Below, in pieces: positions 1 to 11,298 of a stretch of DNA of 11,298 nt. The first letter of the stretch is position 1, and every line of letters starts with the position of its first letter. The stretch lies in the IMG/VR virus record IMGVR_UViG_2740892431_000017; one strand, given 5' to 3'. Made by a program: the position numbers and the translations under genes. Below the pieces are notes generated by a model, which saw only the letters and a list, made by a program, of their open reading frames with translations, had not been told where the DNA came from and did not search any database. This DNA is from a virus. Taxonomy: Duplodnaviria > Heunggongvirae > Uroviricota > Caudoviricetes.

Positions 1-67
1 GGAAATTGTTGTCGCCATTGTTCGATTAACGCGTATTTTTCAGCGACTCCTGTGCAAAATACGCTGT

Positions 68-1288
68 TGTAGATTCAATCTGTCAATGCAACACCCCTTT
101 CAATTATCTCTTTCGGTGTTTTGAACTTCAGTGTCTTTCTCGGTCTGTTGTTTAGCTGAGCAGCAACCAGATCTAGTTCATGTTGAGTATATTGGGCAAG
201 ACATGTCTTTTTAGGAAAGTACTGCCGAATTAGCCCATTTGTGTTCTCATTTGTTCCCCGCTGCCAAGGACTCTGAGGATCGCAGAAGTAAACTTTAACG
301 CCGGTGCTGACAGTAAATTCTAGATGTCTGGCCAGTTCCATTCCTCTGTCCCATGTCAGTGATTTTCTGAGTTCTGACGGTAAACTCAGGAATTTGTCGG
401 TAAGAGCCTGATTTACTGAGACAGAATCTTTGCCCCTGAGTCTAAGGATGATCGTATAACGTGATTTTCGGTCTACAAGTGTGGCTATATGAGAGTTTTT
501 TGTACCTGAGACTAAATCGCCCTCCCAATGCCCCAGAGAGCGTCTGTTATCGATATTTCGGGAACGTTCGTGAATTGGTGTTCCGTTCACTATGTTAATC
601 GTACCTCTTTCGCCTTTGCGGGTATGACGCCTGCCATGGCGAAGGCTATGCGACCGTCGCAGATGCTGTATATTCAGGTGGTGTAGCGCTTCACGGCTAC
701 GAAAGTACAGCGTTTTATAAATTGTCTCAGGTGATATTCGCAGCGTTTTTTGACGTGGTTTTGTTCGCCTTAACCATCCTGATATTTGCTCTGGAGACCA
801 TTGCATCTCCAGCTTTTCCAGAACAAGCTTTCGCAATGGTAAATTTTGATCCAGTAAGCACGGTTTTGGCCTTTTCGCCATTCTGTTGGCTCGGTTATTA
901 GCATCAACAGCTTTGTAATAGCGTCTGCCCCGATTACGCTGAACTTCACGTGAGATCGTCGAAGGACTGCGATTCAGCGTAGTAGCTATCGCACGAATGC
1001 TCATTTTGGCTGACAAACCAGCTCGTATCTCCTCGCGCTCAGACAGTGTCAGGTGAGCTACAGCCCGCTTACGCTCATGGGGTTTTATGCCGCCAGTATC
1101 CCTTAACATAGTGAAGATCGTTGCGGGTTTTGAACCCAGGATATTCGCTATTTCACTGAAGCCTGTTCCGTTCTTCCATAGTTCAAAAACAGAGGCTTTT
1201 TCCTCTGCTGTAAATGTTCGTCTCATTCAAAAAACCTCCGCAACCCCATGTTTTCACATAACTGTTGCGTTGACCAATTGAATCTACA
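68..1288 (-). mobile_element. IS30 insertion sequence, complete (1221 bp) with 26-bp imperfect terminal inverted repeats and 2-bp target duplication
   Basis: Termini 68-93 tgtagattcaatctgtcaatgcaaca and 1263-1288 (reverse complement tgtagattcaattggtcaacgcaaca) match in 23 of 26 positions. Flanking GT at 66-67 and 1289-1290 is consistent with a 2-bp target site duplication. Single 383-aa transposase ORF inside. Confidence 0.92.
75..1226 (-). CDS. insI: IS30 family transposase (383 aa)
   Basis: 383-aa [34 protein letters not shown]... with N-terminal helix-turn-helix region and C-terminal DDE-type core; ATG at 1226-1224. Length and position within a 1221-bp element match IS30. Confidence 0.93.
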
Positions 1289-2997
<1,709 letters not shown>

Positions 2998-3076
2998 GAT
3001 GAGTATCCTTTCAAGGGTTCTGTGTGGGTACAAACATTATCGAACCGGGAAATACCCGCAGTTGTACCCGCATCAG

Positions 3077-3116
3077 TAAGTTGATGTAGATTGAATCAGG
3101 TTGACTTAGGTTGAGT
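3077..3116. promoter_or_regulatory. Four tandem 10-bp-phased repeats (consensus nARGTTGAnn) between attP core and int start; candidate integrase arm-type binding sites or int promoter control
   Basis: Tandem 10-bp units: 3077-3086 taagttgatg, 3087-3096 tagattgaat, 3097-3106 caggttgact, 3107-3116 taggttgagt. One helical turn spacing; location in attP arm next to int 5-prime end. Confidence 0.35.
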
Positions 3117-3158
3117 GAAAAAGCGAGGAAAGCCTTGCGGATACTGGATTTTAGGCAC

Positions 3159-3182
3159 AAAAAAAGACGTCCGTTGACGTCT
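3159..3182 (-). terminator. Rho-independent terminator (minus strand) just downstream of the tRNA 3-prime-end mimic
   Basis: Stem AGACGTC (3165-3171), loop CGTT, stem GACGTCT (3176-3182), followed on the minus strand by a 7-nt U-tract (3159-3165). Confidence 0.5.
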
Positions 3183-3195
3183 ATTGATGTTCCGA

Positions 3196-3217
3196 TGGTG
3201 CGAAGGACGGACTCAAA
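3196..3217 (-). other. attP core candidate: tRNA-Leu 3-prime-end-like sequence (T-loop, acceptor arm, CCA) without the rest of a tRNA gene
   Basis: Minus strand reads TTTGAGTCCGTCCTTCGCACCA, resembling the T-loop/acceptor/CCA end of a tRNA (recalled leuX end GGTTCGAGTCCGGCCTTCGGCACCA). Sequence upstream on the minus strand is AT-rich and not tRNA-like, so this is a phage-borne core, not a tRNA gene. Confidence 0.5.
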
Positions 3218-3399
3218 CATCAAAATAAGTCAATGATAAAAAACAAATAATAAAACACAACAATGAAATATGCCCCCTTTTGTGCCCCCACTGTTTTTCT
3301 GACCAATCTATTTTCAGCCCATCAACAAATCGGAAAGTTAAATAATTTTTAATCAGTAAGTTTGGATCCGTAGTTCGGATCCAAACCAGTGCATCTTTT

Positions 3400-3720
3400 A
3401 TCCACATAAAAAATTTTTTTTCGGAAGAACTGTTCACACTGTTCACCTTTCTTTTTTCTCCTTTTATTTCATAGTGATAGGTGGTGAATAATGGGTGAAG
3501 GGTGAACATTCGATTCTTCACCTCCGGCATTCTGCCGGTGTGACTTGTGCAGGGGATTAATTTCCCGTGCTGAAATCACACCGGAAGAAAAAAGTTTTTT
3601 TTGATTTGATTGTTCACACTGTTCACCTTTCGTTTTTCTCTTTTAATTTCAGTGTGATAACGGGTGAATATACGGTGAAGGGTGAACAGTGGATTGTTCA
3701 CCTTCGGGGGATTCAGGGAT
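3400..3720. repeat. crr-like cis-replication region: two ~120-bp imperfect direct repeats, each carrying TGTTCACC / GGTGAACA iterons (alpha-protein binding octamers)
   Basis: Repeat unit 1 about 3411-3530 and unit 2 about 3591-3712, roughly 85 percent identical. Iterons include tgttcacc at 3440-3447 and 3620-3627, ggtgaaca at 3500-3507 and 3680-3687, tgttcacc at 3695-3702. Lies immediately downstream of alpha, as crr does in P4. Confidence 0.75.
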
Positions 3721-3745
3721 AAAAAAAGACCGGCAGATGCCGGTC
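3721..3745 (-). terminator. Rho-independent terminator of the leftward (alpha) operon
   Basis: Directly after the alpha stop (3762-3764): stem GACCGGC (3728-3734), loop AGAT, stem GCCGGTC (3739-3745), then 7 U on the minus strand (3721-3727). Confidence 0.7.
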
Positions 3746-3761
3746 AGATGAGTCATGATGG

Positions 3762-6095
3762 TCAGGTTGTTGCAGGGTCGTCACATTTTGGCAGCCAGTC
3801 GCCGTAGCTTTCCTCTTTCAGCGTCAGGTTGGTCTGTATCCCCTGTTTGGTATGGCGCTTCTCGTAATTCAGTCCGTATTCCTTCAGCATCACCGGCAGC
3901 CCCAGCCCGAACATTTTCAGACTGAGTACATTCCGGTAGCCGTTTGCCTCCATGTAGGCCAGATAGGCGTGATAGAGGTATTTACGGTAATTACGCGGGA
4001 TGATACTGGCGTTCCCCATATACATGCCGCTGGTCTGCGGCAGGGTTTCCAGATAGCCGATAAAATCAAACGTCGGGTCGGCATCCCGTTTGATGTTCAG
4101 TGCCTCGTCTGAGTTCTGCTGGGACTGAAGCAGTGACCGGGCGAGCATCGGGTCGCTGAACTTCTGCATCAGGTGACGCACGATGACCGCCAGCTCGCGG
4201 GTGATTTTGTCCTTAAGCTGCGGGTCGCGCTCCTGCGGGGCTATCTGTTCCGGGAAGTGAATAATCACCCGCCGGCGTGACACGCCGCCGCTGCGGTCGG
4301 TGAAGCGCATCGGGTTATTGTTCACGGCCAGAATCACCGCCGGGATGTGCGTGGAGTACGCATCCCGGTATTTCGGGTCAACGGACACTGCATCGCCGCC
4401 GGTGATGGCCTTGAGTCCGGCTCCGTCGCCGCTCCATTTTTCCTGGTCCGGCAGGCGTATCAGTGAGAAGCCAGTTAACGCGGCACGTTCACGCGGGGAT
4501 TCCAGCGTCTCGATGGTGGCCGACGTGGCGTTATCCTCACCGGCCAGCAGGGTGGCGATTTCGGCCATGATACTTTTGCCGCTGCCGCCGGGACCGGTCA
4601 CCTCCAGAAAGAGCTGCCAGTCGTAGCGGTTTGCCAGCACCATAAACAGTGCGGCCAGAATCACGTCGCGTTTTTCCGCACGGCCACCGGCGGCACGGTC
4701 AAGCCAGCGCCAGAACGCGGGGGCGTGGGTCTCCAGCGTTTCACCGTCCACCGGCGGGGTGAAATCCACATCGCACAGGGTGCGCATCCAGTGTGACGGA
4801 CTGTGCGGATGGAACGTGCCGTTCTGCGTGTCGAGCACGCCGTTACGAAAGCCAATCAGGCGGCGGGAGGGGGCTTCCTGCTGCGGAATAATCAGTTTCA
4901 GGGTGTCCACCACGGAGGCCACCTTCCCGGAGGAGAACGGCGCGCGCAGACGCTGAAACAGCCCGGCCACATCCCGGGCAAAGTCCTGTGGCGGCAGCAC
5001 CTTCCAGACACCATTTTCATAGCGGGACAGAAGCTGGCCGTTGGCATCGACCGCGAGCGCCTCGCCGTAATGCTCATAGATACGCATGGCCTTTTCGCTG
5101 GTACTCATGGCGGAAAACTCTGCTTCGCTCATGGTGTCGAACGGGCTTTCAGCCGGTGGCCGGATGGCATCGTAAATGGCCTTACGGGTGGCCTCCCCGC
5201 CGTACTGCGTGAAGGCATCATTCCAGTCACCGAAGACCGGCGGCAGGGCAACAACGCCCTCACACGCATCTGCGGCTGCGGCGGCTTTTTTCTGGCCGTC
5301 ACCGCTGAGGTCACGGTCTGCGGCAAGGACAATCTGACAGGCCGGATGCTTCTGCCGGGCAAGGCTGGCCAGAGAAAGGAGGTTCACGGAAGAAAGCGCC
5401 ACCATCACCGTTTCACCGGTCAGGTGATGCACGGTAAGTGCGGTCGCGTATCCCTCCGCTATCCACAGACGTTTTCCGGCCTGATTCTGTCCTTCAAGGG
5501 TGTGACAGGTGCCCCTGACCTGTCCGCCTTTCAGGGTGCGCTTACGGCCGTCAGCACTGATTAACTGAAGGTTAACCAGTTCGCCGCTGTCGTCATACAG
5601 TGGCACCACAAGGTCACCGGCGCGCCAGCTCACGCCACCGGCTCTGTGTGTGCCGGTCAGCATCCGGCATTCCCGGCCGGGAAAGCCCTTGCGGGTCAGG
5701 TAGGCGTTACCGGTTCCGGGACGGGTTTTTGCCATCAGGGTTTGTGCCAGTGCGGCGGCGTTCTTCCGGGCAGCGTCTGTTTCAGCAACGGCGGCGGCCG
5801 TCACTGCCGGGTCAGCCGGGGGCAGGCTGCCGGTCACGGCAGCCACCTTTGCGGCCGCGTCGGACGGAGAGACACCAAACACCTTTCCAACCAGTTTCAG
5901 GCCGTCACCGGCACCACACTGATTGCAGTACCAGGTGCCGCGCCCCTCCCTGTCATCAAAACGGAAGCGGTCACTCCCGCCACAGACCGGACAGGGCTGA
6001 TGACGGTTTTTCAGCACCTGAATCCCCAGCGCCGGGAGAATACGCGGCCAGTGGCCGAGCGCATGGCTGACGGTGGCGGTTACGTTCATTTTCAT
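3762..6095 (-). CDS. alpha: P4 alpha protein: bifunctional primase-helicase with C-terminal origin-binding domain (777 aa)
   Basis: 777-aa ORF with AAGGAG Shine-Dalgarno. N-terminal zinc-ribbon CPVCGGSDRFRF...YCNQCG and primase-type acidic motifs (LAADRDLSGDG), Walker A VTGPGGSGKS in the central helicase region. Length matches P4 alpha and cognate iterons are present at crr and ori. Confidence 0.93.
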   Translation of the reverse strand: MKMNVTATVSHALGHWPRILPALGIQVLKNRHQPCPVCGGSDRFRFDDREGRGTWYCNQCGAGDGLKLVGKVFGVSPSDAAAKVAAVTGSLPPADPAVTAAAVAETDAARKNAAALAQTLMAKTRPGTGNAYLTRKGFPGRECRMLTGTHRAGGVSWRAGDLVVPLYDDSGELVNLQLISADGRKRTLKGGQVRGTCHTLEGQNQAGKRLWIAEGYATALTVHHLTGETVMVALSSVNLLSLASLARQKHPACQIVLAADRDLSGDGQKKAAAAADACEGVVALPPVFGDWNDAFTQYGGEATRKAIYDAIRPPAESPFDTMSEAEFSAMSTSEKAMRIYEHYGEALAVDANGQLLSRYENGVWKVLPPQDFARDVAGLFQRLRAPFSSGKVASVVDTLKLIIPQQEAPSRRLIGFRNGVLDTQNGTFHPHSPSHWMRTLCDVDFTPPVDGETLETHAPAFWRWLDRAAGGRAEKRDVILAALFMVLANRYDWQLFLEVTGPGGSGKSIMAEIATLLAGEDNATSATIETLESPRERAALTGFSLIRLPDQEKWSGDGAGLKAITGGDAVSVDPKYRDAYSTHIPAVILAVNNNPMRFTDRSGGVSRRRVIIHFPEQIAPQERDPQLKDKITRELAVIVRHLMQKFSDPMLARSLLQSQQNSDEALNIKRDADPTFDFIGYLETLPQTSGMYMGNASIIPRNYRKYLYHAYLAYMEANGYRNVLSLKMFGLGLPVMLKEYGLNYEKRHTKQGIQTNLTLKEESYGDWLPKCDDPATT

Positions 6096-6109
6096 GGTGT
6101 TGTTCTCCT

Positions 6110-6430
6110 TCAGTGCAGTACCGGCGCTTTTATGTGACGGGCACAGAGTTCATCCATCACAACCAGCCCGAGAAAGGACAGCGACGGCGCGGCCTTCAGG
6201 GGGCCGGATTCCATTAAATCTTCCAGCAGGGCACAGGCTATCTGACGCCCTTTTTCCTCACCGTGCTGGCGCAGATAAAAGCCTTCCAGCTCAGCGGCGA
6301 TGGCCGCCTCCAGTGACTCAAGGGTGAGATGCGGGTAGCGGTGCTGACGTTCGCACACGGTCAGCCAGGCACAGGCGACAGCGCGACGGTAAAGGGCAGC
6401 ACGTAAGACGGGCGGTAAGGGTGTTTTCAT
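6110..6430 (-). CDS. cnr: Copy-number regulator Cnr-like protein (106 aa)
   Basis: 106-aa ORF directly upstream of alpha (stop 6110-6112, 14 nt before alpha ATG), with GGGAGGA Shine-Dalgarno before ATG 6430-6428. Assignment is by position and size. Confidence 0.7.
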
Positions 6431-6565
6431 TTGTTTTCCTCCCTGTGACAGATGACTGCATTCCGTGCCGGTTGCATTAACTGATAAGGCATATCTGCGT
6501 CTCCTGAAGACGTGCGTATCCCTGCGCGAATACGCACATTTAATTTTTCGGGTGTCGTTTTTTAA

Positions 6566-7021
6566 TTACAGATAATTGCGGTAACTGTTATCCGGGGTGA
6601 TTTCCGGGTCAGGCTCCGTGCGGGGAATTTCCCGCCATTCCCGCGCCACCGGTGCCGCCCGGCTGACCGGAACAGGGGCCTGCGGGTAAATATCCAGATA
6701 TTTCTCCCGCCATTTCTGTAATTCCGGGTCTCCGGCCATTTCTTTCAGTACCGCATGCCGGTTTACGGGGCTGCGTTTAAACAGGTCAGGACGGTCACAG
6801 GTAAATTCCCGCAGAAAACGCCCCAGCGGGATGTCTGTGGTGCGCCCGTCAGCGAGGATACGCACAAGGATACTGAATTTACGGCGGTACGGGTTCCAGA
6901 CAATGTCCGGGCAGCGGTACGGCATTTCCCACGGAATACCGTCTTCCAGAATGCCGACCACGGCCACATCGGGAAAACCGGCAGAACGGTAAATCTCACC
7001 GGGCTGGGGAAAATCAAACAT
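6566..7021 (-). CDS. P4 orf151-like protein (151 aa), function unknown
   Basis: 151-aa [22 protein letters not shown]... with GGGGAGA Shine-Dalgarno; its ATG (7021-7019) overlaps the epsilon stop. Size and position match orf151 of the P4 left operon. Confidence 0.75.
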   Translation of the reverse strand: MFDFPQPGEIYRSAGFPDVAVVGILEDGIPWEMPYRCPDIVWNPYRRKFSILVRILADGRTTDIPLGRFLREFTCDRPDLFKRSPVNRHAVLKEMAGDPELQKWREKYLDIYPQAPVPVSRAAPVAREWREIPRTEPDPEITPDNSYRNYL

Positions 7022-7301
7022 GCGTCTTGTCTCCCCGGTCTTTCTGCTGGGCGAGAAAATCGCGGCACAGGCCTTTGGCTTTCAGCTCATTCAGCACAAA
7101 ATCAATATCTTCATTCAGGTAGCTGAAAATATGCGGAATGTAGAGCTGATGCAGGCCGGAGAGTTCACGGTGAATCAAATCACCCCCAACAAACTGGGAT
7201 ACGGCGCTGGCGCGGTTGAGCTTATGGTAAGCCTCAATGCTGAGGTGTTCACGGGCGTCATGACGCGCTGAGACGGTCTGAGGGGCTTTTTTATTACGCA
7301 C
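7014..7301 (-). CDS. epsilon: Epsilon (helper P2 derepression / anti-repressor) protein, ~95 aa, probable GTG start
   Basis: The only open frame between kil and orf151. GTG at 7301-7299 is preceded by GGAGGTG with 6-nt spacing and overlaps the kil stop (GTGCGTAA); product [28 protein letters not shown]...KDRGDKTHV. The 147-aa track ORF extends upstream into kil in another frame and is likely not the true N-terminus. Confidence 0.6.
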
Positions 7302-7491
7302 GGGACACCTCCACCACCGGCAGACGGGCAGCAAGGGAGAGCACATAGTCACGGACAAGGGAACGGCGGGCACTGCGTTCATCACCGGCGACGGTGCGAA
7401 GCATGCAGATACGGGGATGACGGTCTGCGCGACGGACAGCCGCAAACACAAAGACAAATTCAGGGTGTGAAGGGGTAAGGGTTGTAGCCAT
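7294..7491 (-). CDS. kil: Kil-like small protein (65 aa), terminal part of the eta frame
   Basis: ATG 7491-7489 preceded by GGAGG at 9-nt spacing; product [65 protein letters not shown] (65 aa). Matches recalled P4 kil: 65 codons, first translated gene downstream of PLE, nested in eta. Confidence 0.6.
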
Positions 7492-7893
7492 GATGGCAGC
7501 CTCCGTTAGATAGCAGGTTACGCTATCGCCGGAGTTTCCACGCTCGATGGCGATAGCCCAGACGGGGGTGGAAATACCGGCTCTAACGGATACCGGCCAG
7601 CCCGGAGGCTGCCCCGCCTGAGCTACCATTGACTCTGCGGCATAATGAGCGGACGCGGGCAGGATGCACGGAGTTCCATCTGCTCGACTGACCACACACC
7701 ACACCATAATCTGGCGCTCTGTGGCGTTGATTGCGACACAAAAAAAGACGCATGGCGCGTCATATGTCGCCGTTAGATTGCTCGGGTTTCCACGCCCGGC
7801 TGCCGATTTTGCGACAGCGGAAAAACTATATCCGCAAATGCCGGAAAAAGGCAAGCCAGAAAAAGGGACTTTTTGCAGAACAGGCATCATCAT
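7294..7893 (-). CDS. eta: Eta-like nested ORF (197-199 aa from three consecutive ATG codons), overlapping PLE, cI and kil
   Basis: Continuous frame from ATG ATG ATG (7893-7885, overlapping the vis stop) to TAA 7294-7296. Matches the recalled P4 eta description (three candidate starts, 197-199 aa, begins upstream of PLE, ends as kil). Whether a stable protein is made cannot be judged from sequence. Confidence 0.45.
7550..7640 (-). ncRNA. cI: Candidate CI immunity RNA region (contains seqB); exact ends not determinable from sequence
   Basis: seqB complementarity element plus nearby GC-rich stem potential. P4 immunity is mediated by a short processed RNA carrying seqB; boundaries here are approximate. 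Confidence 0.35.
7740..7761 (-). terminator. Candidate intrinsic terminator or attenuator just downstream of seqA
   Basis: Stem GACGC (7747-7751), loop ATGGC, stem GCGTC (7757-7761), followed on the minus strand by 7 U (7746-7740). Short stem, so weak. Confidence 0.35.
7825..7854 (-). promoter_or_regulatory. Candidate sigma70 early promoter (PLE-like) for the kil-epsilon-alpha operon
   Basis: Minus strand TTGCCT (7854-7849), 18-bp spacer, TATAGT (7830-7825); lies between the vis stop and seqA. Confidence 0.4.
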
Positions 7894-8156
7894 GCGTCGT
7901 ACCCCCGTTTGCGTCCGGCAATGCGGCCGGCCATCCATGCGGTGACTTCAGAGTGCAGCCAGGCCACATTTTTACCGCCAAGACTCACCTGCGGCGGAAA
8001 TTCCCCCTTACGGATGAGTTCGTAGATGGTCGAGCGTGACAGGCCGCACAGGTGCATCACTTCCGGAAGACGTAAAAAACGCTCCTGTGTGATGTCCGGC
8101 AGCGGCATCAGTGGCGTCACAGGGGCGGGAGACGGGGAAGAAAAAACAGCTTGCAT
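7890..8156 (-). CDS. vis: Vis: AlpA/excisionase-family DNA-binding regulator of late promoters and recombination directionality factor (88 aa)
   Basis: 88-aa ORF with GAGGT Shine-Dalgarno. Helix-turn-helix [44 protein letters not shown] is characteristic of the AlpA/Xis family; first gene after the leftward late promoter; size matches P4 orf88/vis. Confidence 0.85.
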
Positions 8157-8258
8157 CGGGCTACCTCGTTAATGTCCATACAGCACCGGATAAGTCCGTC
8201 CGGCTTCGGGTAGCGCTTTATTTTGTGAATATTTTCGGCAGACGCAACAGGGGGGATT

Positions 8259-8276
8259 TGTTCCGGCAGCCTTACA
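8259..8276 (-). promoter_or_regulatory. Candidate Ogr/Delta-responsive late promoter element (PLL-like): TGT-N12-ACA dyad upstream of vis
   Basis: tgt(8259-8261), 12 nt, aca(8274-8276); centre about 110 bp upstream of the vis ATG. P2/P4 late promoters carry this dyad centred near -55. Confidence 0.4.
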
Positions 8277-8439
8277 ATGGCTGTGCATTTTTTGTACATC
8301 AGCGCCAGATAGCTTTAAAACGCTCTGGAAGGAGCTGGAAAAAATTATAGTGAAATACAAATTGTTTTTTCTTATTTATTTCAGTGAATTAATAAAAATA
8401 AAAAGTAATAAACAGCACAAAAAGCCCATCAACGGGTGA

Positions 8440-8550
8440 ACAGTGGTGAACAGACGGTGAACAGTCATTACTGCGATTGTTCACCCTTTAACTTACTGTA
8501 TTACTTATCTTTTTTCTTATTGTGAACAGAGATGAACAGTAAAATATAAA
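8440..8550. repeat. ori-like iteron cluster (GGTGAACAG direct repeats plus inverted TGTTCACC), about 4.8 kb from crr
   Basis: gggtgaacag 8444-8453, tggtgaacag 8454-8463, cggtgaacag 8465-8474, inverted tgttcacc 8488-8495, degenerate tgtgaacag 8530-8538 and gatgaacag 8540-8548. Same octamer as crr; the spacing matches the recalled ~4.5 kb ori-crr separation in P4. Confidence 0.7.
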
Positions 8551-8618
8551 AAAAACAAACAGTAAGCCGGTTTTTCCTGCGACCTTTTCCTGGCTTGCCG
8601 GTCTGAGGATGAGTCTCC

Positions 8619-8636
8619 TGTGTCAGGGCTGGCACA
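8619..8636 (+). promoter_or_regulatory. Candidate Delta/Ogr-activated late promoter element (Psid-like): TGT-N12-ACA dyad upstream of sid
   Basis: tgt(8619-8621)-gtcagggctggc-aca(8634-8636); centre about 80 bp upstream of the sid ATG, compatible with an activator site at -55 plus a short leader. Confidence 0.5.
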
Positions 8637-8708
8637 TCTGCAATGCGTCGTGTTGTTGTCCGGTGTACGTCACAATTTTCTTAACCTGAAGTGACGAGGA
8701 ACCGGAAA

Positions 8709-9443
8709 ATGTCTGACAACACCATCCCTGAATATCTGCAACCCGCGCTGGCACAACTGGAAAAGGCCAGAGCCGCCCATCTTGAGAACGCCCGCCTGAT
8801 GGATGAGACCGTCACGGCCATTGAACGGGCAGAGCAGGAAAAAAATGCGCTGGCGCAGGCCGACGGAAACGACGCTGACGACTGGCGCACGGCCTTTCGT
8901 GCAGCCGGTGGTGTCCTGAGCGATGAGCTGAAACAGCGCCACATTGAGCGCGTGGCACGCCGGGAGCTGGTACAGGAATATGACAATCTGGCCGTGGTGC
9001 TGAATTTTGAACGCGAACGCCTGAAAGGGGCGTGTGACAGCACGGCCACCGCCTACCGGAAGGCACATCATCACCTTCTGAGTCTGTATGCAGAGCATGA
9101 GCTGGAACACGCCCTGAATGAAACCTGTGAGGCGCTTGTCCGGGCAATGCATCTGAGCATCCTGGTACAGGAAAATCCGCTCGCCAACACCACCGGCCAT
9201 CAGGGCTACATCGCACCGGAAAAGGCTGTCATGCAGCAGGTGAAATCATCGCTGGAACAGAAAATAAAACAGATGCAAATCAGCCTCAGCGGTGAGCCGG
9301 TTCTCCGGCTGACCGGACTGTCAGCGGCAACACTCCCGCACATGGATTATGAGGTGGCAGGCACACCGGCACAGCGCAAGGTGTGGCAGGACAAAATAGA
9401 CCAGCAGGGAGCAGAGCTTAAGGCCAGAGGACTGCTGTCATGA
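8709..9443 (+). CDS. sid: Sid: external scaffold / capsid size-determination protein (244 aa)
   Basis: ATG at 8709 with GAGGAA Shine-Dalgarno (the track ORF starts 18 nt earlier). 244 aa, coiled-coil-rich; first gene of the sid-delta-psu operon; stop overlaps the delta start (ATGA at 9440-9443). Confidence 0.9.
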   Translation: MSDNTIPEYLQPALAQLEKARAAHLENARLMDETVTAIERAEQEKNALAQADGNDADDWRTAFRAAGGVLSDELKQRHIERVARRELVQEYDNLAVVLNFERERLKGACDSTATAYRKAHHHLLSLYAEHELEHALNETCEALVRAMHLSILVQENPLANTTGHQGYIAPEKAVMQQVKSSLEQKIKQMQISLSGEPVLRLTGLSAATLPHMDYEVAGTPAQRKVWQDKIDQQGAELKARGLLS

Positions 9444-9940
9444 TTTACTGCCCGTCGTGTGGACATGTTGCTCACACCCGTCGCGCACATTTCATGGACG
9501 ATGGCACCAAGATAATGATTGCACAGTGCCGGAATATTTATTGCTCTGCGACATTTGAAGCGAGTGAAAGCTTTTTCTCTGACTGTAAAGATTCAGGAAT
9601 GGAATACATTTCAGGCAAACAGAGATACCGCGATTCACTGACTTCTGCCTCCGGCAGTATGAAACGCCCGAAAAGAATGCTTGTTACCGGATATTGTTGT
9701 CGGAGATGTAAAGGCCTTGCACTGTCAAGAACATCGCGGCGTCTGTCTCAGGAAGTCACCGAACGTTTTTATGTGTGCACGGAGCCGGGCTGTGGTCTGG
9801 TGTTTAAAACGCTTCAGACCATCAACCGCTTCATTGTCCGCCCGGTCACGCCGGACGAACTGGCAGAAAGCCTGCATGAAAAACAGGAACTGCCGCCAGT
9901 ACGGTTAAAAACACAATCATATTCGCTGCGTCTGGAATGA
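9440..9940 (+). CDS. delta: Delta: late-gene transcriptional activator, tandem Ogr-like zinc-finger protein (166 aa)
   Basis: Two Ogr-type Cys4 motifs (CPSCGHVAH...CRNIYCSATFEA and CCRRCKGLAL...CTEPGCGLVFKT); 166 aa, as for P4 Delta. Confidence 0.9.
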   Translation: MIYCPSCGHVAHTRRAHFMDDGTKIMIAQCRNIYCSATFEASESFFSDCKDSGMEYISGKQRYRDSLTSASGSMKRPKRMLVTGYCCRRCKGLALSRTSRRLSQEVTERFYVCTEPGCGLVFKTLQTINRFIVRPVTPDELAESLHEKQELPPVRLKTQSYSLRLE

Positions 9941-10013
9941 GGGCTGCCGGTTAACCCCGGCCGTCGCCGCACACCGTATTTTTATTCTTCAGCATGATGA
10001 GAAAGAGATAACG

Positions 10014-10586
10014 ATGGAAAGCACAGCCTTACAGCAGGCCTTTGACACCTGTCAGAATAACAAAGCAGCATGGCTGCAACGCAAAAATGAGCTGGCTGCG
10101 GCCGAACAGGAATATCTGCGGCTTCTGTCAGGAGAAGGCAGAAACGTCAGTCGCCTGGACGAATTACGCAATATTATCGAAGTCAGAAAATGGCAGGTGA
10201 ATCAGGCTGCCGGTCGTTATATTCGTTCGCATGAAGCCGTTCAGCACATCAGCATCCGCGACCGGCTGAATGATTTTATGCAGCAGCACGGCACAGCACT
10301 GGCGGCCGCACTGGCACCGGAGCTGATGGGCTACAGTGAGCTGACGGCCATTGCCCGAAACTGTGCCATACAGCGTGCCACAGATGCCCTGCGTGAAGCC
10401 CTTCTGTCCTGGCTTGCGAAGGGGGAAAAAATTAATTATTCCGCACAGGATAGCGACATTTTAACGACCATCGGATTCAGGCCTGACGCGGCTTCGGTGG
10501 ATGACAGCCGTGAAAAATTCACCCCTGCGCAGAACATGATTTTTTCGCGTAAAAGTGCGCAACTGGTATCACATCAGTCTGTGTAA
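10014..10586 (+). CDS. psu: Psu: polarity suppression protein (Rho antagonist and capsid decoration), 190 aa
   Basis: 190-aa ORF after delta, followed by a hairpin and the cos site; size and operon position match P4 psu. Confidence 0.9.
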   Translation: MESTALQQAFDTCQNNKAAWLQRKNELAAAEQEYLRLLSGEGRNVSRLDELRNIIEVRKWQVNQAAGRYIRSHEAVQHISIRDRLNDFMQQHGTALAAALAPELMGYSELTAIARNCAIQRATDALREALLSWLAKGEKINYSAQDSDILTTIGFRPDAASVDDSREKFTPAQNMIFSRKSAQLVSHQSV

Positions 10587-10621
10587 AACTCCCCGAAAAT
10601 CCGCCCGTTTTTACTGAAAAA

Positions 10622-10660
10622 AGCCATGCATCGATAAGGTGCATGGCTTTGCATGCGTTT
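10622..10660 (+). terminator. Candidate terminator hairpin downstream of psu
   Basis: Stem AGCCATGCA (10622-10630), 9-nt loop, stem TGCATGGCT (10640-10648), followed by ttgcatgcgttttcc; the U-tract is weak. Confidence 0.4.
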
Positions 10661-10750
10661 TCCTGCCTCATTTTCTGCAAACCGCGCCATTCCCGGCGCG
10701 GCCTGAGCGTGTCAGTGCAACTGCATTAAAACCGCCCCGCAAAGCGGGCG

Positions 10751-10769
10751 GGCGAGGCGGGGAAAGCAC
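10751..10769. other. cos site: 19-nt P2/P4-type cohesive-end sequence
   Basis: GGCGAGGCGGGGAAAGCAC at 10751-10769 matches the recalled P2/P4 19-nt cohesive end. GC-rich imperfect palindromes on its left side (10682-10703, 10732-10751) are possible terminase-binding flank. Confidence 0.75.
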
Positions 10770-10879
10770 TGCGCGCAGACCTTGTTACATACTTAATAAA
10801 GTTCACAAATACTTAATACCATCACGCTCATGTGCAAAACTGTTTATTAAAATGAATACTGCCCTATACATCTAAAGTG

Positions 10880-10917
10880 TCGTTACCATAATAAAAGAAG
10901 ATTATAAAAAGCCGCCA
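10880..10917 (-). terminator. Rho-independent terminator for the minus-strand cargo gene
   Basis: Stem AAGCCGC (10898-10904), loop CATAAT, stem GCGGCTT (10911-10917); the minus strand continues with a U-rich tail (10897-10880), 35 nt after the cargo gene stop at 10952. Confidence 0.5.
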
Positions 10918-10951
10918 TAATGCGGCTTAAATCATACTCATTCCCAACAAG

Positions 10952-11298
10952 TTATTTGACATTCGATGCAGAAACCTTATTAGGCCTAGCATCAATCAAG
11001 ACTAAATCCTTACCTTCTTTAATCCCAAGTTCTTTGAAAGTCTTAAACAATCCAGACAATTCTCGATCAGTAAAATACAAAATAACCTTTATTGATTTTT
11101 TTGTTTCATTTGCCGCCTCATACACTTTAACCTGATTTGCCAGATTCTGTTTAAGCTTGGAGTTACTAGCCAGTTTGAATTCAACCAATGTTTTATCTTT
11201 CGAACCTCTCGATATTTTGTAGTCAACGGGACCACGACCATTATTTACTTCACTATTGACATCAGAAATACTAGGGAAGGTGCGAACAAGTTCCTGAT
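10952..11298 (-). CDS. Partial CDS (C-terminal ~115 aa; 5-prime end beyond window): low-GC accessory gene with PD-(D/E)xK-like nuclease motif, in the psu-cos-int accessory position
   Basis: Frame is open from the window edge to the stop at 10952-10954: QELVRTFPSISDVNSEVNNGRGPVDYKISRGSKDKTLVEFKLASNSKLKQNLANQVKVYEAANETKKSIKVILYFTDRELSGLFKTFKELGIKEGKDLVLIDARPNKVSASNVK. GPVD...LVEFK resembles a D-x(n)-E-x-K nuclease core. Roughly 35 percent GC against roughly 55 percent for the P4 core genes. The track ORF 10952-11188 starts at an internal TTG. Confidence 0.6.
   Translation of the reverse strand, partial: QELVRTFPSISDVNSEVNNGRGPVDYKISRGSKDKTLVEFKLASNSKLKQNLANQVKVYEAANETKKSIKVILYFTDRELSGLFKTFKELGIKEGKDLVLIDARPNKVSASNVK

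Follow-up and report, generated by a model that had tools for sequence, protein, structure and literature searches.

P4-like satellites are an established reservoir of defence systems: in published screens, most of the previously untested cargo taken from them was protective (PMC9122126; PMC13586616). This cargo is carried in the psu-cos-int hotspot, where P4 itself harbours gop, beta and cII and where other satellites carry STAND proteins with TIR, SIR2 or nuclease effectors (Rousset et al. 2022, PMC9122126). These STANDs, as well as the Avs and bNACHT STANDs, combine a constant module with TIR, SIR2, protease or nuclease effectors. The opposite arrangement is seen in Shedu (SduA, DUF4263), where the nuclease is constant and the N-terminal domains are variable. 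PDC-M36, in turn, is a candidate system of PADLOC that is defined by lying embedded in loci of BREX, DISARM or type I R-M systems (10.1101/2024.01.29.577857). It forms a three-gene cassette, FAM_01399>>FAM_00303>>FAM_00303 (supplementary file 8 of the same study).

The locus described here lies in the same satellite hotspot, at the right-hand end of a stretch of viral DNA of 11,298 nucleotides that was analysed as a whole (the window). Directly behind cos, the window contains the 3' part of a single cargo gene, whose intact version encodes a protein of two domains: an N-terminal module of about 360 residues (DUF8370) and a C-terminal domain of about 120 residues (DUF8371). Taken as a whole, the explanation that we favour, at a probability of roughly 65%, is that of a stand-alone sensor-nuclease defence gene, the local copy of which was inactivated by an ISKpn26-type insertion sequence.

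With gop-beta-cII this gene has the psu-cos-int hotspot of a P4-type satellite in common (PMC9122126), but there is no sequence similarity and one gene stands against three. The likeness to the STANDs extends further, as it comprises both the hotspot (PMC9122126) and the coupling of a constant module to TIR, SIR2, protease or nuclease effectors. The DUF8370 module is much smaller, however, and has neither an NTPase match nor a solved structural relative. In comparison to Shedu the roles are exchanged, with a constant N-terminal module and a variable effector, and no DUF4263 or Shedu profile match was obtained in Pfam or PADLOC. PDC-M36A of PADLOC, finally, is homologous to the N-terminal module (residues 5-329, E 4e-21, 73 bits). 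This match spans only positions 5-324 of the 457 in the model, and every family member tested matches PDC-M36A equally weakly, over the N-terminal 200-270 residues. An R-M-embedded context is also found for DUF8370 homologues, but the three-gene cassette of PDC-M36 differs from the single DUF8370 gene, for which neighbour clustering of 82 loci revealed no conserved partner gene. The family is consequently regarded as a sister of PDC-M36A and not as a member of PDC-M36.

Positions 1-11274 of the window are 99.9% identical to Escherichia coli AF3 (NZ_OZ547117.1) and MSB1_4I and correspond to a P4-like satellite. By transfer of the AF3 annotation, the window contains an IS30 element, integrase remnants, the alpha primase-helicase gene, regulatory genes, sid, delta and psu. 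The features on which the following sections rely are:

10014-10586: psu (AF3 annotation)
10751-10769, plus strand: P2/P4 cos cohesive-end sequence, an exact match to GGCGAGGCGGGGAAAGCAC and the last conserved satellite feature before the cargo
10777-10951, no strand assigned: start of the low-GC variable cargo segment and 3' untranslated region of the cargo gene, delimited by the end of the backbone and the GC content
10909-10928, minus strand: hairpin of the cargo gene resembling an intrinsic terminator (consensus scan; 7-bp stem and 6-nt loop, followed by a U-run)
10952-11274, minus strand: 3' fragment of the DUF8370/DUF8371-family gene, with a DNA sequence 100% identical to that of the AF3 gene's 3' end
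11271-11274, plus strand: CTAG at the IS junction, the probable IS5-family target site
11275-11298, plus strand: first 24 nt, at the left end, of an ISKpn26-type (IS5-family) element that interrupts the gene

The 19-mer GGCGAGGCGGGGAAAGCAC is the cohesive end of P2 and P4. Around this sequence the homology to known satellites ends: the linear record of reference P4 matches the window up to 10750, where that record itself ends (megablast), the matches to P2 cos regions reach 10776, and the backbone common to other E. coli P4-like elements extends only to 10776-10779. The GC content drops from 0.562 in the satellite backbone (3762-10776) to 0.337 in 10777-11274, and none of 1028 other 498-nt windows had a GC content as low.

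At the opposite end of the window, an IS30 transposase gene (75-1226, minus strand) is found to the left of the alpha primase gene, together with a second tyrosine integrase in fragments (2083-3033 and 3213-3530, minus strand). In AF3, the corresponding parts of the region 75-3530 are labelled as an IS30-like element and as an integrase pseudogene with an internal stop. The IS30 element and the integrase fragments suggest that a neighbouring element, now decayed, lies in tandem with the satellite.

The cargo gene is read on the minus strand toward cos and ends with a TAA stop codon at 10952-10954. When compared to the intact 487-codon gene of AF3 (record L001, 12173-13636; NZ_OZ547117.1 4230282-4231745), the fragment comprises the stop codon, codons 382-487 (106 codons) and 2 nt of codon 381. 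The DUF8371 region is thus only partly inside the window: the fragment holds most of the PD-(D/E)xK-fold domain (strands beta1-beta4), without the helix alpha1 that carries E368. The hairpin (10928-10909) starts 23 nt after the stop codon and is followed by UUUUUAUAAU. Its predicted RNA fold has an energy of -16.6 kcal/mol (z = -2.88), with 2 of 200 shuffled sequences folding equally well.

The last 24 nucleotides of the window do not belong to this gene. Positions 11275-11298 read GGAAGGTGCGAACAAGTTCCTGAT, and the same 24-mer starts both annotated ISKpn26 copies of E. coli PSJ-22 (record L002; 24 of 24 nt identical to each), which are located at 8011 and 14582, each beginning 68 nt before the transposase start. 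The 24-mer is found once in the window, versus 0 occurrences expected by chance. IS5-family elements prefer YTAR targets; in the window CTAG directly precedes the IS, and both PSJ-22 copies are preceded by TAG. Aligned pairwise with AF3, the window matches it perfectly through ...ACTAG (11274), beyond which the identity collapses, and all 17 complete E. coli genomes that contain the gene diverge from the window exactly at 11274/11275, a cut that falls inside codon 381. The insertion is absent from each of these 17 genomes, which all have one uninterrupted ORF of 1464 nt. No match to the exact gene-IS junction was obtained in metagenome contigs, nor was any match to the predicted chimeric IS-gene ORFs in the protein collection. 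Only the left IS end is contained in the window, while the transposase and the right end lie beyond 11298. Judged from these sequence comparisons, the local gene copy has very probably been disrupted by an ISKpn26-type element. As the sensor module and helix alpha1 are separated by the IS from the catalytic strands, the local copy is almost certainly non-functional and most likely a pseudogene.

A preliminary description of the window had proposed a sharp composition drop directly after psu and cos, a hotspot boundary at about 10770, and a minus-strand gene read toward cos with a terminator of its own. All of these are borne out by the data above. It had also assumed that this gene runs in from the right edge as a continuous ORF, with the informative part just past 11298. 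This does not hold: the left end of the IS cuts the gene at 11274/11275, and about 1.2 kb of IS would come first (the PSJ-22 ISKpn26 has a length of 1196 bp). Since 11275-11298 is IS sequence, the residues QELVRTFP that had been assigned to the protein are IS-encoded, with the last one being a hybrid.

When PSJ-22 (L002, 8001-8034) is aligned with window positions 11265-11298, the same 10 nt (GAAATACTAG) are seen to precede the IS in both, even though the strain and the flanking genes are unrelated. This common sequence may be due to chance, or it may reflect a target preference wider than the TAG-ending site. The reference ISKpn26 copy of PSJ-22 is also adjoined by a DUF4268 gene (L002, 3423-4598), which has hsdS on one side and hsdR on the other within a type I R-M operon, and constitutes a further case of a gene embedded within R-M.

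The intact AF3 protein has 487 residues (WP_001572310.1) and is annotated in RefSeq as a "DUF8370 family protein". Among 5426 complete E. coli genomes, 17 contain the intact gene, which in them lies between cos and the integrase gene of P4, next to tRNA-Leu. In line with the cargo status that the preliminary description had given it, the gene is horizontally acquired cargo in the psu-cos-int hotspot of a P4-like satellite, and Table S1 of Rousset et al. 2022 (PMC9122126, supplementary file 2) contains exactly this protein as a 'hypothetical' entry among the cargo of the P4 hotspot. Within the portions of the nine supplementary files of that study that were consulted, WP_001572310 is mentioned in the hotspot catalogue alone (PMC9122126). 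A literature search retrieved no paper that names or experimentally tests the family.

In the precomputed Pfam assignments, PF28130 (DUF8371) and PF28123 (DUF8370) are present on P0001 and on almost all of the 120 homologues listed. The order of the two domains, with DUF8370 N-terminal and DUF8371 C-terminal, follows from truncated and fused relatives. Sequence and profile searches of the intact protein against Pfam 2025, NCBIfam and PDB chains gave no match to a characterised family; hits to Rad60-SLD, DUF349 and CobL were discarded as noise (E 0.03 to 0.55). Two PHROGs families of unknown function were matched, and tblastn against 50,697 phage records, including P4 (NC_001609), returned nothing. 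With this empty search and with P4 homology that stops at cos, identity with Gop, Beta or CII can be ruled out. The earlier question of whether the gene is gop-like or a different, possibly undescribed one is thereby answered in part: it is a different gene, yet it had already been catalogued as hypothetical cargo. An end-to-end alignment with Gop or another well-characterised protein, which would have spoken against the original proposal, was not found in Pfam, NCBIfam, the PDB or the phage records.

In Table S1 of Rousset et al. 2022, the gene is paired with a small 'hypothetical' protein, WP_071837912. This small protein has 10 entries in the file and at least once stands beside a different large protein, WP_078331634 (PMC9122126). 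The current RefSeq annotation of AF3 contains no such gene. Candidates for it in the window (around 10600-11135) are a 78-aa ORF at 10639-10875 (plus strand), which overlaps cos, and an antisense 71-aa ORF at 10920-11135 (plus strand). Both ORFs look spurious.

Several truncated E. coli alleles were also encountered. P0019 consists of residues 1-364 followed by R, P0027 of residues 135-487, P0272 (WP_252357647.1, 4 contigs) of residues 1-299 and P0271 (WP_263035249.1, 28 contigs) of residues 94-487, while many further 'partial' database entries stop where a contig breaks off within the gene. The truncated alleles, taken with the IS found here, suggest recurrent inactivation. This contrasts with the reported rarity of defence pseudogenes in P4 (PMC13586616).

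The C-terminal domain displays the core alpha-beta-beta-beta-alpha-beta fold of the PD-(D/E)xK superfamily, with the catalytic D on beta2 and the (D/E)xK on beta3, both conserved in the family. It contains a complete E...D...ExK active site: when 54 homologues (60-90% identity) were aligned, E368, D398 (in PVD), E412 and K414 did not vary. In the window, D398 is encoded by 11222-11224, E412 by 11180-11182 and K414 by 11174-11176. The closest structural neighbours of this domain are the type II restriction enzymes BstYI, BamHI, OkrAI and BglII. From these it differs in sequence (6-12% identity to the DUF8371 domain), and the DUF8370 protein has no cognate methyltransferase and carries the extra 360-residue N-terminal module. 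When the full-length model was compared to the PDB with Foldseek, nothing was obtained at E <= 0.001; the best local matches, all weak, were to PD-(D/E)xK nucleases such as SfsA, EndoMS/NucS and Cdn1. At the profile level, PDDEXK_9 matches 5 of the 54 members (best E 1e-4) and DpnII-MboI 3 of the 54, and the query itself is matched by neither. The D...ExK arrangement noticed at the outset (GPVDY...VEFK) is therefore present and invariant, and its resemblance to PD-(D/E)xK nucleases is supported by the structure comparison of the domain, with weak support from profiles. The domain of the intact protein is quite probably competent for catalysis. In the wider family, the D/E/K triad is intact in 47 of 96 representatives with a near-complete N-terminal module.

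For the N-terminal 356 residues a confident structure model was obtained, to which no solved structure is related. The invariant residues of this module are mostly acidic or histidine (D10, D32, D38, H52, E84, H131, E133, D145 and D149). No NTPase profile matched the module and no Walker-type motif was seen among its invariant residues; likewise, its core showed no similarity to known modified-base readers. The family comprises 2217 representatives (clusters at 50% identity) at E <= 1e-3 and 297 at E <= 1e-30. Full-length homologues (43-89% identity) are found in Proteobacteria, Bacteroidota, Clostridia, Chloroflexota, Rubrobacter, Acidobacteriota, Verrucomicrobia, Nitrospirota, Chlorobium and Gracilibacteria, and the module is conserved over more than 10 phyla (43-63% identity).

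The longer members of the family retain the module with its invariant D32, D38, H52, E84, H131, D145 and D149, and carry other effector domains after it:

TIR (8 members): P0143, P0154, P0163, P0166, P0167, P0197, P0215, P0219
caspase (2 members): P0149 and P0155, the latter also with EAD7
CHAT (2 members): P0129, P0182
SIR2 (1 member): P0132

An intact D/E/K triad is missing in 15 of the 16 long proteins, compared to 22 of the 67 proteins of standard length (Fisher p = 8.6e-6), and in the alignment the beta1-beta2 region of the long proteins is deleted or degenerate. As a degenerate nuclease-like domain is kept in several fusion proteins, this domain may also have a structural or DNA-binding role. 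Such a design, in which one constant module can be paired with a TIR, SIR2, protease or nuclease domain, is that of prokaryotic immune proteins, and it is taken as an argument that the E. coli version has the nuclease as its effector.

The homologues occur in a variety of mobile settings. In Vibrio parahaemolyticus, the gene is a single-gene integron cassette between attC-like repeats; in Methylomagnum, it belongs to the accessory genes of a prophage and is surrounded by packaging and replication genes; and in the Enterobacterales Mangrovibacter, Buttiauxella and Dryocola, it again occupies a P4 hotspot and adjoins a P4-type integrase. A TIR-carrying variant is located on what is probably a conjugative element. 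The E. coli gene itself lies in a defence hotspot (P4 psu-int), and defence-related neighbours are found in a minority of the 82 loci. In 11 loci HsdR is encoded no more than 4 kb away (immediately upstream and on the same strand in 3), and the next most common neighbours are OLD/GajA-like ATPase-TOPRIM proteins (7), methyltransferases (5), HsdS (4), integrases (4) and YgjP (3).

The P4-like elements of Mangrovibacter, Buttiauxella and Dryocola each contain another cargo ORF, about 287 aa long and without a Pfam match (L007 7477-8340, L024 3198-4067 and L043 7469-8341, all minus strand). It is convergent with the DUF8370 gene, lies on its psu side at a distance of 8-16 nt, and is absent from the E. 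coli version. In locus L088 (1-6200 and 7001-9091), the TIR-carrying P0215 is encoded downstream of a cluster with a MotA/ExbB-like protein and several large unannotated proteins, possibly Zorya-like, as well as a trypsin-like protease. The contig also contains T4SS coupling-protein and ParA genes, so that a conjugative element is likely.

Overall, we propose that the intact protein would act as a stand-alone immune protein against phages or other mobile elements. The N-terminal module would serve as sensor or regulator and would hold the nuclease inactive until an infection-associated cue appears. This cue would be a conserved ligand, e.g. a nucleic-acid structure or a small molecule; because the conservation of the module is very high, such a ligand is suggested rather than a fast-evolving phage protein. 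The activated nuclease would then cut what is presumably DNA, either that of the phage or that of the cell, the latter resulting in abortive infection. In relatives, TIR, SIR2, caspase or CHAT effectors are coupled to the same N-terminal module instead. The parts of this proposal are not equally firm. An immune function of the DUF8370 family is probable, whereas the odds that a sensor activates the nuclease in this manner are about even, and the N-terminal invariants, mostly acidic residues and histidines, would also fit an enzyme active site and may even point to an enzymatic step instead of passive sensing. Further observations count against the explanation. An identity of 43-63% over more than 10 phyla is unusually high for an immune sensor, and the gene is carried by no more than 17 of the 5426 complete E. 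coli genomes. The several truncated alleles indicate that the gene is dispensable, although a defence gene that carries a cost would be expected to behave likewise.

The similarity of the C-terminal domain to type II restriction enzymes also allows for another explanation. The protein could be a solitary Type IV or otherwise methylase-less restriction endonuclease, in which the module reads modified or foreign DNA and the BamHI/BstYI-like domain cleaves it, with no abortive infection involved. The lack of a conserved methyltransferase partner and the frequent vicinity of type I R-M genes would agree with this. However, the N-terminal core does not resemble known modified-base readers, and TIR, SIR2, caspase or CHAT domains take the place of the nuclease in relatives; these domains do not restrict DNA and are typical effectors of cell suicide or signalling. 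This explanation is considered unlikely, although it is the most probable of the alternatives. Considerably less probable is a selfish toxin or addiction nuclease that stabilises or spreads its mobile elements (satellite, integron cassette or prophage) instead of defending the host. The gene is found almost exclusively in mobile or variable contexts and the recurrent truncated alleles in E. coli suggest a cost, but no small antitoxin-like neighbour is conserved in the 82 loci and the Vibrio cassette consists of a single gene. In addition, both the effector repertoire (TIR, SIR2, caspase and CHAT) and the R-M and OLD-like genes associated with the family are in keeping with immune proteins.

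The position of the gene, immediately beside cos and transcribed toward it, might finally point to a function in the life cycle of P4-like elements, such as interfering with the helper phage or processing DNA close to cos. Such a function is very improbable: full-length homologues (43-63% identity) exist in Bacteroidota, Clostridia, Chloroflexota, Rubrobacter, Verrucomicrobia and Gracilibacteria without any P4 backbone, and most P4-like satellites carry other cargo at the same position (PMC9122126), as was also seen in our E. coli comparison. The sensor-nuclease defence protein thus remains the preferred reading.

The protein was already known as hypothetical cargo and as two Pfam DUFs, and both cargo of the P4 hotspot and defence by a single PD-(D/E)xK protein are of a known kind. 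New are the fold assignment, the N-terminal module without a solved structural relative, its coupling to five effectors, and the IS disruption in this genome. Given this knock-out by the IS, the source strain should not be assumed to possess the function of the gene. Cargo that was previously catalogued only as "hypothetical" now has an architecture that can be tested, namely a compact conserved module joined to a restriction-fold nuclease. Whether DUF8370 is, more generally, a hitherto unrecognised NTPase-free immune sensor module, combined with at least five effectors (PD-(D/E)xK, TIR, SIR2, caspase and CHAT) and spread horizontally over more than 10 phyla, is a proposition for which we see an even chance. 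If it is true, DUF8370 would define a new single-chain defence family, with the P4-satellite gene as its representative in E. coli, and the extreme conservation would imply the sensing of a universal, non-protein infection cue. A DUF8370 protein that defends its host would then represent a new type of sensor, working without an NTPase switch, and its strongly conserved pocket residues would make the search for the ligand tractable.
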